Source: a virus. From it: a DNA stretch of 64,000 nucleotides. Of this stretch, positions 34,148-47,027 are shown piece after piece. The position numbers were made by a program, and so were the translations under genes. The stretch is taken from positions 104,333 through 168,332 of IMG/VR virus record IMGVR_UViG_3300039183_000005; one strand, given 5' to 3'. Position 1 is the stretch's first letter; every line of letters starts with the position of its first letter. The notes beneath the pieces are model-generated. The model searched no databases and was not told the origin of the DNA. It was given only the letters and a program-made list of their open reading frames with translations.

Positions 34148-34909
34148 TTATTTTCCTTGTTTTTTATCTCGTTCCATACATGAAAAACAGTCCATTCCTA
34201 AATCCAGTTGTTCTGCCCTCCATTTCCAGACGTGTTTTCTTGCGTCGTAGTAGTCAATTTCGCCGAAGTGTTTCCACGGGAAATATCCCATAGGGCACAA
34301 TGTTATCATACCTGTTTCTATTACCATCAATTGCCCTGTTTCTTTGCAACACCCACAGCAAACTTCGAATTCACGACTTGATAGGTGATTATCCCATGCT
34401 CTTCCAAGCGGCAATAGCTTATTATCTGGAATATTTACTCCATAAATCAATTTAGCTTTTGGACTGTGTTCGCGATATAGTCGTTGTGCTCGTTTGCTGA
34501 ATTTCTGGTGCCATTTATCATCGGATATTGCCACAAGAACTTCGTCGCAGATTTCACAAACAGAATCTATTGATAATAGGAACTTATTCGTAGCCATTTT
34601 GTCGTAGGCCCATTGACCGTTTGTAACTATAGATGCTTTATGTCTACCAGATGTCAGAGCTATGAGAATTTCTGGATAGTCTGGAAGTATCGTGAACTCT
34701 CCACCCATTATGTTTATTCTTATGTTTTTCGGCAACCATGTGTTTAATAATTCGCAGTCTCGGATAGATAACTGACCTATACATTCAGGGCCAGACCTGA
34801 AACAACAATGAGAACACCGTTCGTTACACTGGTTTGTCACCCTAGCCACAAATTCATTGGTCCATGAATTATTGCTCCACTTACTAAACCAGTGATTATA
34901 CTTTGGCAT
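34148..34909 (-). CDS. Radical SAM protein with a twitch/SPASM-like C-terminus
   Basis: CNERCSHC (CX3CX2C); MGGE; TNG; GRA; C-terminal G...LCP. Confidence 0.85.
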   Translation of the reverse strand: MPKYNHWFSKWSNNSWTNEFVARVTNQCNERCSHCCFRSGPECIGQLSIRDCELLNTWLPKNIRINIMGGEFTILPDYPEILIALTSGRHKASIVTNGQWAYDKMATNKFLLSIDSVCEICDEVLVAISDDKWHQKFSKRAQRLYREHSPKAKLIYGVNIPDNKLLPLGRAWDNHLSSREFEVCCGCCKETGQLMVIETGMITLCPMGYFPWKHFGEIDYYDARKHVWKWRAEQLDLGMDCFSCMERDKKQGK

Positions 34910-35678
34910 GAATTTTTTCTCTCGACAACCTGATAGATTGATCATGCTCCATGCATGAGCAGCAAGTCATCCCTCTTGTAAGTTGTTCTGATCGCCAATT
35001 TAATACATATTCCTTAGCTTCATACCATGAAGTCTCTGTGAAATGTTTCCACGGAAAATAACCAAACGGACACTTACACACCATTCCGTCTTCTGATATG
35101 AACATATTACCCATTGTGTTACATCTTGCCCATTTTTGTGGATCGGGGACAATATTATTATCCCACGCTCTTCCAACCGGAACAATCTCCGATACAGGAA
35201 GATTACCAGGATCAACTAATGTGACTTTTGGACAATTATTCTGCATAATTTCAAATGCTTTTGGCCACGTATGTTTGTGCCATTTGTCCGTTGATATAGC
35301 GACATCAACTTCTTTACATATTTCTGTAAGAGAGTTAATGGTTTTTATGAAATTTTTTCTGATTGTGAATATGCGAAACCATTGTCCATTTGTAACAATG
35401 CGGATATGATTTCTGTTTTTTGCCAGTACGTAAAGAATTTCTGGATAATTATGCAATATAGTTATTTCACCACCCATTATATTCGGACTAACATCATGCG
35501 GTATCTATCTATTAATATCGATACAATCATTAGTAGATATGTGGCCAACACATTTTGGGCCAGACCGGAAAGCACAGTGAATACACTTTTGATTGCATCT
35601 GTTTGTAACTCTTACTACACAGGCATTTATTGTTGTATTTGTTGTCCATATTTTTGGATATTTTTTATTGCTACTCAT
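34896..35678 (-). pseudogene. Paralogous radical SAM gene with an in-frame TAG at 35505-35507
   Basis: From ATG 35678: ..VTNRCNQKCIHCAFRSGP..DCIDINR*IPHDVSPNIMGGE... The stop aligns with Trp in the paralog (LNTWLP). Confidence 0.8.
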
Positions 35679-36238: not shown

Positions 36239-36892
36239 TCATTTGGTCCCCATTTCATTGGTCAGCAAATTTACATCGATTTCTTTATCTATTTCGCATC
36301 CACGAAGCCACTTGGCGAATTGTGCTACTCTTATGCCAGCCGATACGTTTGCGCAATAAATTGTTGTTTTTGCAGTACATGACCCAGAATAAGTTTCTCT
36401 CTGTGGGAATAGCGTTGTGTTATAGTGCTCTTTAGATTCTTCGTCGTGTGCGACGAAGATTCTCATATATTCTGCACTCATTCTTCCATCGATAAATAAG
36501 TCAGCTCGATTTTTGACTGCGTTAAAAATAGATTTTCGTGTTTCAATACTGTCTACACAACAAAATAACACACCTCCGGTAAACTGGATTGACATGAATT
36601 TTTTATTTGCAGTGTTTATTTCTATCGCCGGATTAATCATGCGACAAACATCTGCCGTTGCGTCAACTTTAGCACGACCCAAATCTGCTTCGAAATATCC
36701 TTGTGCTGCCAGATTTTCTACTTTTACTATATCAAAATCAATTAATTGAATTTTGGGCACACCAATTGCCGCTAGTTGCAGTGCAACCTGACGGCCACCA
36801 GCGCCAACTCCCACCACAGTCACTTTTGTGTCTTGCAATTTTTCTGGTGGAATTAGTTCTCTCTGACGGATGTCTCTATTTTCAATATTCAC
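36239..36892 (-). CDS. ThiF/E1-like Ubl-activating enzyme
   Basis: VVGVGAGG; IDFDIV...NL..Q; K; CVDSIETR; FIDGRM; candidate catalytic Cys in GSCT. Confidence 0.9.
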   Translation of the reverse strand: MNIENRDIRQRELIPPEKLQDTKVTVVGVGAGGRQVALQLAAIGVPKIQLIDFDIVKVENLAAQGYFEADLGRAKVDATADVCRMINPAIEINTANKKFMSIQFTGGVLFCCVDSIETRKSIFNAVKNRADLFIDGRMSAEYMRIFVAHDEESKEHYNTTLFPQRETYSGSCTAKTTIYCANVSAGIRVAQFAKWLRGCEIDKEIDVNLLTNEMGTK

Positions 36893-36924: not shown

Positions 36925-37836
36925 TTATAGATTTTCTTCAGCCCAAGCAACCACCATATTCGACCATTTTTGGATTGGTTTGTTTATCGCAACAATATCA
37001 TTTCGATTTTCACCAAAAGCATCTTCAGAAAACCATCTTTTTTCTATTGGATCATAAAAATACCACAAGGCATCATTATATTCAAAAAATGCAGCATAGC
37101 CGTTATCATCCCAATGGCAATCAAAGTCTAATTCTTCCACCCGATTAAGTTCATCCTGTTGCCGAGCCAACTGTTCGTACTTTTTATTCCACCATAGCGG
37201 GTCATCATCAGGTTTGTCGTCTTGTACCAGACAGGAACGAGTAATTCCACCTTCTTTTCCTGTCATGCAGAATTTCTCAATCTGTACTTTATCTTTATAT
37301 TCATTATTCCAGGCTTCAATGTTTGAACCATTAAATGGAACATTCCAATCTACTGCAATTTTTAGTTCTTTTACCACTCCCGGTCCAACGTTAATCTTCA
37401 ATCTACAGTAGATTTCTCCACCTCTTGCAATGATGAACATTATGGCCCAATATGGATGGGAAAACGCTTTTCGGAAATTTTCTTCATCGGTTCCGCTAGG
37501 TTGAGGACAATTTCCTGGATGGGAATGTAGTAAAATATTTTGACATGTCCAGGGCGGCATTCCAATATCCATCATTCGTTCTGCGTAATCCGCCATATCT
37601 TCTGAGTCAAAATCGAATGAAGCTCCAGTACATTTTTGTTTTATCAAAATGAAATCTGTAACTAAAAGTGGGTCTTCAGTTCCGGTTACTCCATAACCAG
37701 CTACTTCAGTTGGCCCTTTATCTCTCATATAAATTAATTTTGCAAAACTGTATGGAGTAAATCGCAATGTATCTCCAAAAGTCATTTTTGGCGTCGTGAA
37801 TTTTTTACTCATACTCCTATTCCTTCTAATAGACAA
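36925..37836 (-). CDS. JAB/JAMM (MPN+) metallopeptidase
   Basis: TEVAG (Glu) plus HSHPGNCPQPSGTD = HxH-x7-S-x2-D. Confidence 0.88.
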   Translation of the reverse strand: MSIRRNRSMSKKFTTPKMTFGDTLRFTPYSFAKLIYMRDKGPTEVAGYGVTGTEDPLLVTDFILIKQKCTGASFDFDSEDMADYAERMMDIGMPPWTCQNILLHSHPGNCPQPSGTDEENFRKAFSHPYWAIMFIIARGGEIYCRLKINVGPGVVKELKIAVDWNVPFNGSNIEAWNNEYKDKVQIEKFCMTGKEGGITRSCLVQDDKPDDDPLWWNKKYEQLARQQDELNRVEELDFDCHWDDNGYAAFFEYNDALWYFYDPIEKRWFSEDAFGENRNDIVAINKPIQKWSNMVVAWAEENL

Positions 37837-39059
37837 CCATGTTCTTCAAGACAGGATGAACACATTGGAACTCCACAGTGTTCACATGTTGTTTGACAAT
37901 CTTCGCAAATACTCTTTTGACAACTATGACATTCATCAAGACACTCTTTGCAGCAATTCTCTTCACAAAGACCGCATGTAATCATACATTTTTCACATAT
38001 AGGTTTATTGCAACAAGAACACGCCGATATACATGGATTGCAGAAATATTCCTGACAAATAGTGCATTGGCTTAGACACGACGAACAGTAATTTTTTTCG
38101 CATTCGGTACACATACTTGCACAGTTGTTGCAAAGTGCCTCTCCGCATTCATTACATTGTGTACCACATTCACTACACATCCATTGGTCACACACACAAC
38201 ACGCATCACCATTTTCTGCACAATTTTCACAGTAGTTACAGTCACACATTGCACAATAGTACCCACATTCATCTGGACACCATTCCCTACAATTTTCACA
38301 ACAGAACTCCCCTTCGTGGTCTGGTTCATACCATTTTTCTAATTTGTCATACGGTGAATCATCATTATATGTTCGTAGAATAGATTCTACAACTCTAAAA
38401 CAATCTTCGAGTCTACCCTGGCATATGGCATTTGTTATAGCTTCTTCTCCTTTCCCTTGACATAAAGATTCATCTCCAATGTGTGGATGATAATATCCTC
38501 CTAATGATTGTATTTCATTTACTGACTCTATAGTTATGTTATACGGATTCGTTAGATCAATGTGTACCCAAAAGTGCCCAAGGTCTACTTCTTCATTTTC
38601 ATCTTCGAGCACAACATCCTCGATAAGTACCGATAGTTTGTTGTCGCGAAATTTAACATTTTTCCAGGCGTTGCTAATTATTCTAATTTCTTCTGTTATT
38701 TCTTTTAGCGACAATGGTGTTACTAGACCTTTTTCTGTCATGATTTTAATTATTGCCATTGCTTGGCGTGTCATTTCTATAACACTATCTCCAATGTTTG
38801 GAATCATGGTTGTCGCAATATTTTCGTATACACTTGGATTTACAATTCCCAGATGTCGGACTGATGGTTCCCATTCATTAACTTGGACACGCGGACTTGT
38901 TCCAGCAATAAATCTATCGTACCATCGTTTTATTTCTTCCAATTTGATAGCAGCATTTGTTATTGCATTACTTGCGCTCATATTGAGATTAACAGATTGT
39001 TGTTCCACCATCCATTTGTGATATTTGATAGCAGCTCTGCGTATTAGTTTTTCATTCAC
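37809..39059 (-). CDS. Prokaryotic E2-like protein fused to about 10 Cys-rich repeats
   Basis: LGHFWV.I; HPHIGDESLC (E2 active-site-like); ILRTYN..SPY; C-terminal (CxxC-x4-CxxC-x3) repeats. Confidence 0.72.
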   Translation of the reverse strand: MNEKLIRRAAIKYHKWMVEQQSVNLNMSASNAITNAAIKLEEIKRWYDRFIAGTSPRVQVNEWEPSVRHLGIVNPSVYENIATTMIPNIGDSVIEMTRQAMAIIKIMTEKGLVTPLSLKEITEEIRIISNAWKNVKFRDNKLSVLIEDVVLEDENEEVDLGHFWVHIDLTNPYNITIESVNEIQSLGGYYHPHIGDESLCQGKGEEAITNAICQGRLEDCFRVVESILRTYNDDSPYDKLEKWYEPDHEGEFCCENCREWCPDECGYYCAMCDCNYCENCAENGDACCVCDQWMCSECGTQCNECGEALCNNCASMCTECEKNYCSSCLSQCTICQEYFCNPCISACSCCNKPICEKCMITCGLCEENCCKECLDECHSCQKSICEDCQTTCEHCGVPMCSSCLEEHGCLLEGIGV

Positions 39060-39471
39060 AGTAAATTTTTCCTATATTTAAAACCGATTATTTTGCCAAA
39101 TTAACAAATTTAGTATTCCGACTAAAATTCGACGAAAAATTTACCATTTGATTCTCGCCATATAATACACTTATTGTTTACGTCATATTCCTACGGTAAG
39201 GCTAACTAGCCTTACTTTTGGTCAAGTCAGGTGGATTGTTTTATTCATCTGATCTTGCTAGACATTCAGCCAGTCCTCCGACATAATCTTCTAGGTGAAG
39301 TAACACTTCACTATATCCAAATGCGTGACCTTTTTCCCAAGCCATATACGATAGCCAGCCACGAAATTTTTTGGGAATTCGATTTAGAAGTTCGGTTTGC
39401 TTGGCCTCGAACTCTTCTTCAGTTATTCTGCTCATTGTGTTTGCCTATAATTTGATACGTGATTATTAACC

Positions 39472-39505
39472 AAAAGGGGGTGGGGGAACGTATCTCCCCC
39501 ACCCC
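39472..39505 (-). terminator. Intrinsic terminator after the Ubl gene
   Basis: Minus strand 11-bp stem GGGGTGGGGGA/TCCCCCACCCC followed by CTTTT. Confidence 0.75.
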
Positions 39506-39540: not shown

Positions 39541-40017
39541 TTACGAACGCTTCGTCAGCTTACTCCGAACCAACTCGGCATCTTCTTTACTAAGACCGCT
39601 AAGCAACTTGGAAACAGTCTTCGGAAGCTTATCCCTAGACATTTGTACTCTCTTTAATTTATATGCGAGAGTAAGTACATTTGGATCGGTATCGGCGGCA
39701 AGTCGCTCAGCGATAGTTACATTATCAGTGCTCATTTTGGTCCTCAGAGAAGCTATCTGCTCCTCATTTGTTCCTGGACCTTTACCCGCGTCGCCCTCGA
39801 TCTTTTTCGGCGCCAGACTTACCCTGTCACCGTCTTGAAGGACATAATCCAGATGAGCTTCGACAGTCATGCCATTTGCACGAACTCGGATTGTGAAATC
39901 ATCCAAATCGCGACCGAAAGAAACCTCAAGAAATTTTTCCAACGTCGTTCCATTGACAACGGGAATCTTGCGCGGAATACCAGAACCGTCATTTGTTACC
40001 AACATTACCTCGATCAT
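39541..40017 (-). CDS. Ubiquitin-like (beta-grasp) protein precursor with an 83-aa C-terminal extension
   Basis: V.LV...G..GTTL..FL...IRV.N....YVLQDGDRVSLAPKKIEG(75), then a helical basic tail; lies upstream of E2-JAB-E1. Confidence 0.8.
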   Translation of the reverse strand: MIEVMLVTNDGSGIPRKIPVVNGTTLEKFLEVSFGRDLDDFTIRVRANGMTVEAHLDYVLQDGDRVSLAPKKIEGDAGKGPGTNEEQIASLRTKMSTDNVTIAERLAADTDPNVLTLAYKLKRVQMSRDKLPKTVSKLLSGLSKEDAELVRSKLTKRS

Positions 40018-40982
40018 AATTTTTCTCCAGAAAGAGGGGCAATACCCCTAGACTCTACACAACCAAAATAAAGAACAAAACATTACTCTTAAGCATATAA
40101 TTGCGAACTGTTTCACATATTAGTCGTCCTCCGTTATATCATAGTAATTCATTAATTGTTTAGTACCGTCTCGAATATCTTTCAACAATTAAGAAAGCTC
40201 CAACGTATAAATTTCATCAATTTCATCAATAGCAATAAACTCATCCTTTTCGGGTTCAAAATCTATGCCGAGCGTTTCTATCACCTGCTCTTCAGTTGGA
40301 AAAATTTCTGACCAGAGCAACCATTGTGTTGATCCGTATTCGTGCTGATGATATATTGCAAAAAGCCTGTGTTTCGGACTAGGCTGCGATAATATCATTT
40401 TTGTTCTCCTAATTTATTTTTGTATGCCATAGCTACAGCTTTCCATCCAGCTAACTGGACAACAGAGTGAGCGGCTCCAACTTCGTAGTGGTTACCAACT
40501 TCTTTAGCCCAATCTGGTACATCCCAGACTCCTGTTTCCAGTTGGATTAAGTCATTGGAAACAGTATTTGCTTCTTGTGTTGTTAACAATTTTTGTTTGA
40601 TTATTTTCTGTCCAATCATTGGTTGTTACTCCTCTTCGATTACTGAATGCTTCGAGGCACTTATGATGGCCTTTATTTCTCTATCTGTTATTTCGATTCT
40701 TTCGGATGGATCGAATTCTCCATTTTTGTGAGACATGATGCGAATTAAACCGCCAGGAACTCGCCAGAATCCTATTCTACCAAAATGGGATGGGCTATCT
40801 CTAAGTAAAACTTCAGCGTGCGGTGGTCCTGCTACTGTAGCCCATTCTAGAATTCGTTTACGACGATCTTCTCGCTGTCGATTGCCCATTGTTTTTATAA
40901 TATTAAGATATTCGTCGTTGAATTTTGATTTACTTTTCACTGTTTTGTCTCCATTTACATACACATACCAAACTGGCTTATG

Positions 40983-45138: not shown

Positions 45139-46953
45139 AATTTTTTCCTTACTTTAAAAAGACTCAGGAAAATTAATAGAATCATCATCCTCTTCATCGT
45201 AATCATCTTCGTTGTCGTCGCATTCACTACAATTACATGCGCTGCCATAATTCTGGCCTATTTCCTGATCATCAATGGATGATCTTTCCCACGTAAGACT
45301 GCCAGTAGCGGTTTCTATCATCACCTTGTGAATTATTTTGTTTCTCATTAATTCCATCATCAAATGTAATGTTTGTCCCTTTGATTCTGTCTCAATACGT
45401 TCCGTGCCATTTTTTTGTACGAATTCATTTGCGCCAAAATTCGTACTATTTTTGTTCCAGATGGTTAGTGTGTACATTATTTTTCCCACCTCCGTCTATG
45501 TAGTTCTACTCGCAATGTTCCATCATATTCGTGTGTAATAGCTACGATACTGAGTGTTCTTCCAGATTTGGAAGATATTTGGTCACCAACTATTGGCCGA
45601 CAACATACCATAGTGGGCCACGCTTCTCTTTGATAATCATCTAGGTTTGTAAAACAAATTACTTTCATATTAACAATCTCCGAACATTTTTCCAATGAAA
45701 TGGGCACCCGCTATCGGTGAACCCCTCATCCGTTCATATGCGTGCCACAAATCTGCTAAATTGAATGATTTTTGTTGCCATTTTTCCAAGGCAAAATTCC
45801 AGAATACTTGTCTATTTGTCATCTCAACCCCCACCAGGCTAATCGGGAAACGGGAACGGAAGATTAATAAATTGTATGCCGTATTCCAGAATAGGACAAT
45901 TTTGTGCTTGACGATCCGCTTCCACCAAAGCTTCTGTTCTCTTATACATGACATCGCAGTCACCAAAATATTTAATCAATTCTTCGCTGTTGAAGCCTTC
46001 GCAATCTGGTCTATAAGTTATATTGTCTATTGCCATTGCGTGAGTAACGCGAAATTCAAATTCTCCGGGAATATCTTTGTGAACGGGAGATTTCAGAATG
46101 TAAATACCGTTGTCAGCACTCATGTTTCTTCTCCAAATACATACAGGCCAAACTGCAATTACGTCAAACATTGTTTTGCAGTGTTTTGGGAAAACTTGAT
46201 TGTTCAAAAATCAATTAACTCAAAAATTTTTAATATAATAGCGGTAGACAAAAATGCAGATAACCAAAATGTTTGTGTAAAATTCCATGGGTTATCTTTG
46301 TCCATATTTTTATTATGCTGTCTACTTCTGGTTTTTCCATTGCGTACTGTTCCCTATTTGCCTCTGTGTTATTGGCGTATTTATTAGGTGGCTGTTGTGT
46401 TCGCATTTTGTTCCTGCGATTATTGCTGCGATTAAAAATAATATACCTATAACAAAATATTTCATATTAGCGAAGCCTTGCCTTTTTTCATCAAGGATTG
46501 CTAAACATATTGAACACCCGATGGCAAACATCCATGCTAGACAAATCCAAATCCAGTTGTTGGAATTCATTTTTTGCATTCCTCGTCGAAAACCCACCCT
46601 AATCGACAAATTGTGACTTAACGCCACTCCCGTTGTATACGTTTACAACACTCATCATCGACTACCAAGAACCAAACAATTACTAGAGTCGTTAGTTCAA
46701 AGGTTTTAGGTTAGCATCAATTGATGGTTTCTATTCCGTTATGATGGTAATAACACCTTTTTCTTTATTACAAGGATCGATATCACACTCTATATCTTCA
46801 AAAAAACATATACCACAACTCGGACAATCCACTTCAATTTCTAAATTGTCGGAATGGTCCTTGGTAATTCTTCTGAATTCGCCCAATGTCATTTTGTTTC
46901 TCCTAAAAGATAGTTTGACAAGTGATGATATTTATCATTCTATCCATTCACAG

Positions 46954-47027
46954 TGGGCCTGGCAGGACTCGAACCTGCGACCTTGTGTTTATAAGACACA
47001 TGCTCGTACCAACTGAGCTACAGGCCC
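46954..47027 (-). tRNA. tRNA-Ile, anticodon UAU (CCA not encoded)
   Basis: GGGCCTG TA GCTC AGTTGGTAC GAGC A TGTGT CTTATAA ACACA AGGTC GCAGG TTCGAGT CCTGC CAGGCCC A forms a full cloverleaf; anticodon TAT at 46991-46993. Confidence 0.92.

Follow-up and report, generated by a model that had tools for sequence, protein, structure and literature searches.

A gene on the minus strand of a phage genome encodes a 158-residue protein in which a beta-grasp Ubl domain ending at Gly75 runs directly into a five-helix passenger, and JAB-dependent cleavage after Gly75 probably converts this protein into two functional ones. This reading draws on the comparison of homologous sequences and on analogy with bacterial Ubl operons. 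Since the join directly follows the glycine that needs to be released, the JAB encoded in the same operon is the enzyme most likely to cut the fusion. The window referred to below is the whole stretch of DNA analyzed, 64,000 nucleotides long, and makes up the end of a virus record of 168,332 bp, rated complete by CheckV. Its genes around the operon encode a helicase, a ribonucleotide reductase, a UvsX-like recombinase, exonucleases, and a topoisomerase. The sole tRNA of the window is a tRNA-Ile with a TAT anticodon (46953–47027, minus strand).

The Predicted Precursor and Its Gene

The features of the gene and of its product are as follows.

39541..40017, minus strand: Ubl-passenger precursor gene, 158 aa and a stop codon (open reading frame list, homologues, AlphaFold2)
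40025..40028, minus strand: Shine-Dalgarno-like GGAG, 7 nt upstream of the ATG (seen in the sequence)
39793..40017, minus strand: beta-grasp Ubl domain, residues 1–75, ending P-K-K-I-E-G75 (Foldseek, a weak ThiS match, conserved Gly75)
39790..39795, minus strand: predicted scissile bond Gly75/Asp76, two codons (short ends of relatives; analogy with BilC/BilA and BubCD/BubAB)
39544..39792, minus strand: passenger, residues 76–158, comprising a linker DAG, a K-G-P-G-T motif, and a five-helix domain
39477..39505, minus strand: intrinsic terminator-like hairpin of 12 pairs, 9 of them G-C, with a T-rich run, just 3' of the precursor gene

Full-length homologues at 53–79% identity and many partial ones were found, and the gene is therefore genuine and not a chance reading frame. 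The protein reads SLAPKKIEG75 and then DAGKGPGTNEE at the junction, which leaves a tail of 83 aa (residues 76–158). Its anatomy is the one originally predicted from the DNA: the open reading frame and the AlphaFold2 model both give a beta-grasp reaching KKIEG75, which continues as DAGKGPG into an 83-aa helical part. The tail had also been described as Lys/Arg-rich; the five modeled helices confirm its helical character, but its composition is only moderately basic (pI 9.75, with 16 Lys and Arg against 11 Asp and Glu).

The AlphaFold2 model, built on a 61-sequence alignment, has a mean pLDDT of 92.3. The strands and helix of the beta-grasp occupy residues ~2–70 at pLDDT values above 90, and the five helices lie at residues 84–157. 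The linker between them (~71–83) is of low confidence, with a pLDDT of 61 over the block 71–80, and a moderate pTM (0.56) is in keeping with two domains that lack a fixed mutual position in the model. Foldseek matched the N-terminal half to SUMO, ubiquitin, MoaD, and TtuB with a probability of 1.00 and TM-scores by target of ~0.5–0.6. Sequence matches of the Ubl were weak, the best being ThiS (E 0.017, Pfam) and MoaD (E 0.009).

Conservation of Gly75 and Diversity of What Follows

The relatives, 119 from a search of 1.8 billion representatives and 12 from a first search, were sorted by domain into the following clusters.

Single Ubl with 0–9 residues past the Gly: 70 clusters
Tandem Ubl with two or three beta-grasps: 24 clusters
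Single Ubl with 10–24 residues past the Gly: 3 clusters
Ubl with another extension of at least 25 residues: 6 clusters
Ubl with the five-helix tail: 9 clusters by domain sorting (10 fused forms in the fuller tail census)
Five-helix tail alone: 14 clusters by domain sorting (35 in the fuller tail census)

Gly occupies the position of Gly75 in 108 of the 112 family representatives and in all of the 13 closest homologues. At least one residue lies beyond it in all 112 representatives, usually 1–4, and none of them ends at the Gly itself. The nearest short-tailed relatives end in EGEK, EGAV, DGATL, or EGA, and the first residue after the Gly is Ala in 84 of the 112. An Asp at P1', a position that varies in the family, occurs only in the window's protein among these representatives; this is unusual, yet within the character of the family, because acidic residues after the Gly are also found in three short-tailed members that carry Glu there (P0010, P0020, and P0051). 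The family ends in one Gly, with E, D, Q, or T before it, and not in Gly-Gly. Most members have 1–4 residues after the Gly. In 10 clusters the Gly is followed by the ~80-aa helical domain, and elsewhere by unrelated long tails, among which those of P0080, P0106, and P0124 are of low complexity or disordered. The original prediction had proposed checking in homologues whether KIEG stays fixed while the tail varies, and had named homologues without a conserved Gly as a result that would speak against it. For the Gly, the homologue alignment gave the former pattern, with diverse parts following a Gly kept in 13 of 13 nearest homologues and 108 of 112 representatives.

Two relatives carry other passengers past the same Gly, namely P0017 (L011, 6001–6462; Ubl 55% identical, 78-aa helical passenger) and P0009 (Ubl 69% identical, 67-aa passenger). 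The tail of P0017 was at first suspected to be a diverged homologue of the passenger described here; it proved unrelated when compared with the tail profile by hhalign, and the same comparison showed no relation for the tail of P0009. In the 24 tandem representatives (P0018–P0104), the internal repeats end T-P-x-K-[IV]-x-G|A-[AS] and pass straight into the next repeat. These junctions resemble head-to-tail polyubiquitin, from which the JAB might release monomers; the Bub and Bil papers took tandem beta-grasp proteins as multi-domain.

The Passenger as a Protein Family

A profile search returned 41 clusters, which together with earlier matches gave a census of 35 free and 10 fused forms of the tail. 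Free tails are ~80–115 aa long and start with M-[KR]-GPGT. In the fused forms, 1–3 residues separate the Gly from [KR]-G-P-G, with no loss of the Gly or of the P-x-K-[IV]-x-G motif in any of the 10. The [KR]-G-P-G-T motif begins no more than a few residues from the N-terminus in all free forms; fused forms would acquire it at an N-terminus only through cleavage, which provides a further, weak argument for processing.

Modeled alone with AlphaFold2, the tail forms a five-helix domain with a pLDDT of 88.8. The best conserved parts are the N-terminal [KR]-G-P-G-T, which falls in a low-confidence segment of the model, together with L-A-Y-K-x-x-R and L-P-K-x-V. L117 and A118 of the core are invariant, and Lys120 is present in 23 of 24 members, alongside the L-P-K motif; Lys94 and Lys133 are conserved as well. 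The tail had no significant match in Pfam and none in a profile search of the PDB (best E 0.33), and neither PHROGs nor NCBIfam, the latter searched with the whole precursor, gave a match covering it. By structure, Foldseek found nothing in the PDB below E 5, a wide VIA-align search reached a best Z of 4.5, which is the noise level for helical bundles, and the Atlas gave TM-scores of at most 0.43 by shape and no usable match by features. A search for the tail domain within larger proteins of 173–2000 aa found none, although this is weak evidence; a pattern scan of bacterial and archaeal species genomes and a paralogue search within this phage were likewise negative. As judged from its sequences, the tail is a protein family of its own.

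The suggestion that the passenger may bind nucleic acid found no backing here, given that no family or fold match was obtained and that basic charge varies across the family. The pI of 24 members spans 5.1 to 10.2 with a median of 9.3, so that most but not all are basic, and a general nucleic-acid-binding role is therefore unsupported. A complex prediction of the tail with residues 1–250 of the E2-like protein, the JAB, and the E1 gave a score of 0.00; it was run without controls and counts neither way.

The same census bears on the idea that the protein is cut after Gly75 but that the tail is a disposable pro-piece without a function of its own, a cap that blocks Ubl activity as long as no JAB has been synthesized. 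Such a role would suit the great diversity of family tails in kind and length, some of them of low complexity or disordered, and the locus L002, which has no tail. The five-helix tail, however, is kept as a separate gene in ~35 clusters, where it cannot act as a cap, and it has an invariant core and a confidently predicted fold. We consider the pro-piece very unlikely and favor cleavage into two working proteins.

Fused and Split Loci

In split phages, the tail gene lies 3' of the Ubl gene, immediately adjacent in five of the six, and before the genes for the E2-like protein, the JAB, and the ThiF-type E1. It follows the Ubl gene directly in L005/L006, L007, L009, L010, and one Logan contig. 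In L001, which comes from a viral contig of 181 kb, the last residues of the Ubl are G-A-V, and the second gene downstream encodes the 83-aa tail on its own; this product (P0015) starts M-K-K-G-P-G-T-N-E and aligns to residues 78–158 of the window's protein. L003 is fused as in the window, L011 has a different tail, and L002 has no tail gene within 6 kb of the Ubl. The E2-like, JAB, and ThiF genes are present in all compared loci, fused or split. Because the tail is missing near the Ubl of L002, the core system can do without the passenger; this absence, and its replacement by unrelated passengers in P0017 and P0009, further mark it as an accessory outside the core chemistry.

The record is a metagenomic assembly, and a fusion could arise in one as an artefact, for example when a stop codon is lost or the sequence between two genes is collapsed. 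This is hardly credible here: the 10 fused sequences are distinct (33–78% identity), come from independent samples, and have in-frame junctions of 1–3 residues, and none of them retains the spacer of ~80–140 nt that separates the Ubl and tail genes in four split loci.

A maximum-likelihood tree was constructed from 45 tails (alignment of 84 columns), on which fused and free tails are interspersed. The best tree requires 7 changes between the two states and its well-supported branches force at least 3, while a smaller tail set forced at least 2; since the alignment is short, the exact number of fusion and fission events is uncertain. The supported branches nevertheless exclude a single origin of the fused state, and the interspersion, with at least 3 forced changes, indicates that the fused and free states are interchangeable. 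This pattern would be expected if the bond after the Gly were always cut and the peptidase were blind to what follows it.

It also weighs against a protein that stays whole, in which the beta-grasp would be a built-in interaction domain, as in eukaryotic Rad23, and the operon enzymes would act elsewhere. One continuous open reading frame and two confidently folded domains are what such a protein would show. Interspersed fused and split forms, on the other hand, imply that the domains work separately; in each of the 10 fused forms, the Gly and P-x-K-[IV]-x-G are retained and the linker has only 1–3 residues, and the genome holds no second Ubl gene able to serve the E1. An uncut protein is therefore unlikely, and cleavage after Gly75 is retained as the preferred reading.

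The terminator-like hairpin described above has counterparts elsewhere. A G-rich hairpin stands 3' of the tail gene in L005, L009, and L010, and 3' of the Ubl gene in the tail-less L002. In L007, a terminator-like hairpin instead lies between the Ubl and tail genes, and in L001 another gene separates the two, so that Ubl and tail do not always form one unit. For the most part they do appear to be one unit apart from the enzyme genes, which fits a division into two stoichiometric and three catalytic components. A near-identical hairpin, GGGGTGGGGG...CCCCCACCCC followed by a T-rich run, occurs in the window (39477–39505, minus strand), L002 (6325–6352), L009 (6263–6290), and L010 (6262–6294), at the end of the Ubl or Ubl-tail unit; the proteins of these phages share only 55–75% identity. 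The terminator sequence itself thus seems to be conserved.

Operon Enzymes and Neighborhood

Downstream of the hairpin, the operon contains the following genes.

39241..39435, minus strand: 64-aa open reading frame between the precursor and E2-like genes, poorly conserved
37809..39059, minus strand: E2-like candidate, 416 aa, with a C-terminal CxxC array and invariant H191-P192...C200
36925..37836, minus strand: JAB/JAMM metallopeptidase, 303 aa, catalytic domain and C-terminal extension
36239..36892, minus strand: ThiF/MoeB-type E1-like adenylating enzyme, 217 aa (Pfam ThiF, E 1.4e-26)

The only match of the 64-aa frame is one of 23 residues in L005. The 416-aa protein carries an invariant HP(H/N)-x7-C motif in the homologue alignment but matches neither UQ_con nor Prok-E2 among the Pfam E2 families, and its structural neighbors bearing UQ_con in the Atlas are weak (TM 0.34 only). 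It is accordingly called E2-like, a candidate named from the motif and these neighbors, and because it matches no E2 family by sequence, the conjugation chemistry is putative. Its look-alikes in the Atlas are commonest in Planctomycetota (a cluster of 2,546 members), a hint that the host, or the source of the cassette, may belong to this phylum. The array of CxxC pairs (37809–38308, minus strand) has 28 invariant Cys columns in nine homologues, with a repeat number that varies between phages, and bears a weak resemblance to zinc fingers of the PHD, RING, B-box, and FYVE types (E 0.0015 and up), so that it might serve as an integral E3-like module or bind targets.

The JAB matches Pfam Prok-JAB at E 4.1e-5 and 23.9 bits, just under the gathering cut-off of 25, and its JAMM motif is complete, with E44, H104-x-H106, S114, and D117 invariant in 9 homologues. 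Its C-terminal extension of ~150 residues (residues ~150–303; 36925–37400, minus strand) has an invariant Cys240 and conserved Trp/Tyr positions; it has no family match and is absent from the 218-aa homologue of L011. The E1-like enzyme is conserved in all nine related loci, with an invariant GxGxxG and Cys172, and falls below every NCBIfam equivalog cut-off. Its ThiF domain covers residues 17–202 of 217, leaving little space for an inserted CYS domain such as the mobile one of the BilABCD E1. For the operon as a whole, PADLOC gave only generic JAB and E1-E2 (Cap2-type E1 domain) matches, and blastn found no match among deposited phages.

Radical-SAM and isochorismatase-like genes neighbor the operon. 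In the region 34896–35678 and 34148–34945 (both on the minus strand), a 57-aa frame with a CxxxCxxC radical-SAM motif and a 193-aa frame together look like a split paralogue of the adjoining 265-aa radical-SAM gene. Radical-SAM genes adjoin the E1 gene in L003 and the Logan contig as well, and lie upstream of the Ubl gene in L007.

Gly75 might alternatively be freed by the JAB for thiocarboxylation by the ThiF-like enzyme, in a sulfur-carrier module of the ThiS/MoaD type that tags no proteins, with the passenger as the working partner of the carrier. The best, though weak, sequence matches of the Ubl are indeed ThiS and MoaD, the E1 is a minimal 217-aa enzyme of the ThiF/MoeB type, radical-SAM genes adjoin the operon here and in relatives, and fusions of such carriers to their partners, ThiS-ThiG and MoaD-MoaE, are known (PMC1779556). 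Against this, every operon encodes a protein with the E2-like HP...C motif and a zinc-finger-like array, and the tail is unlike any sulfur-transfer protein. The family, moreover, ends in a single Gly after E, D, Q, or T, whereas to our knowledge the known sulfur carriers have a C-terminal Gly-Gly. We regard a sulfur carrier as improbable and continue with release of the Ubl for E1/E2-like chemistry.

Comparison with Known Systems

Eukaryotic ubiquitin is made as an N-terminal fusion to a small basic ribosomal protein, which a deubiquitinase frees in a 1:1 ratio. The phage passenger differs in being no ribosomal protein (no Pfam match), in following a single Gly, in having a predicted JAMM encoded next door, and in a fusion that is not fixed.

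The closest precedent is the Type I Bub operon, in which BubA is always encoded as a fusion to its E2, BubB, and the JAB domain of BubCD cuts BubAB directly after the conserved Gly229, as established by Edman sequencing and active-site mutants (PMC11601596). Both cases join a Ubl to a C-terminal protein with a JAB/JAMM of the same operon placed to cut after a conserved Gly; in BubAB the cut has been demonstrated and the passenger is a functional partner from the same operon. That passenger is an E2, JAB and E1 are parts of one protein, and the chemistry is Ser/Tyr oxyester (PMC11601596), whereas the phage module has a helical passenger of ~80 aa, separate JAB, E1, and E2-like proteins with invariant Cys residues, and a facultative fusion, and is carried by a phage of 168 kb. 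Since the passenger has no E2, Pfam, or PDB match, the phage module is not a member of the Bub operons but a mechanistic analogue only.

BilABCD has a gene set of Ubl, E2, JAB, and E1, to which the Ubl, E2-like, JAB, and E1 genes of the phage compare, and its JAB, BilC, exposes the reactive Gly. BilC trims BilA after Gly97 and does so in BilA-GFP as well, natural BilA tails being reported as at most 9 residues long (10.1101/2023.09.26.559546); the cutting of this artificial fusion shows that BilC tolerates what lies on the P' side. The phage module differs in its minimal 217-aa E1, its E2-like protein without an E2 family match, and its 83-aa tail.

Release of Ubl domains from fusions by a JAB was predicted by Iyer et al. 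in 2006, including for lambda TAPI (PMC1779556). The TAPI proteins of lambda and T1 resemble the precursor as phage Ubls with a conserved terminal Gly, a short linker, and a small globular C-terminal domain. Their predicted release is by the adjoining JAB of TAPK, in tail-assembly clusters that lack E1 and E2 (PMC1779556). The present operon has E1, E2-like, and JAB genes and stands among replication and nucleotide-metabolism genes, with no tail-assembly cluster and no phage-tail families among the profile matches.

The literature search yielded no description of the operon or of the tail family. The idea that the Ubl is made as a fusion precursor is thus supported by comparison, although it is not new given the BubAB precedent (PMC11601596): the cleavage mechanism is already known, and the novelty lies in the passenger family, in a fusion that is facultative and has recurred, and in the occurrence in a phage.

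Proposed Mechanism and Implications

We propose that the 158-aa product is a precursor whose beta-grasp is recognized by the JAB/JAMM of the operon, which would cut after Gly75 and so give equal amounts of the mature Ubl (residues 1–75) and the 83-aa five-helix protein. The freed C-terminal Gly of the Ubl would be adenylated by the ThiF-type E1 and handed on via the E2-like protein, while the released helical protein would bear the K-G-P-G-T motif at its N-terminus. This protein may be a regular but dispensable member of the phage Ubl module, being encoded in most relatives by a separate gene after the Ubl, which would usually be co-transcribed with it ahead of a strong terminator. A JAB that recognizes nothing beyond the Ubl side of the bond would make both fusion and separation of the two genes free of cost, which would explain why such changes occurred several times. 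We infer the cleavage, the JAB as its enzyme, the conjugation by the E1 and E2-like proteins, and the role of the passenger alike. For the last, our best guess is a stoichiometric partner of the Ubl pathway, an adaptor or acceptor; an unrelated effector seems less likely.

Among close relatives, the same Gly is followed by no fewer than three folded passengers that are unrelated to one another. A broader and quite tentative proposal is that the Ubl/JAB pair is a general device for cleavable fusions, the commonest passenger of which would be a new stoichiometric adaptor or a dedicated acceptor.

The bacterial Ubl systems Bil, Bub, and CBASS with Cap2/Cap3 are host defenses. A cassette of Ubl, E2-like, JAB, and E1 genes in a family of ~165–180-kb phages would place the same chemistry on the side of the virus. 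The fused precursor would offer a natural substrate for a simple and cheap JAB assay of the activity of the cassette, and the pattern of fusion and fission singles out the small helical protein, to which homology searches assign no name, as a pathway member. It further shows that the production of a Ubl as a fusion with a second useful protein emerged separately from the eukaryotic cases and repeatedly within a single phage lineage.
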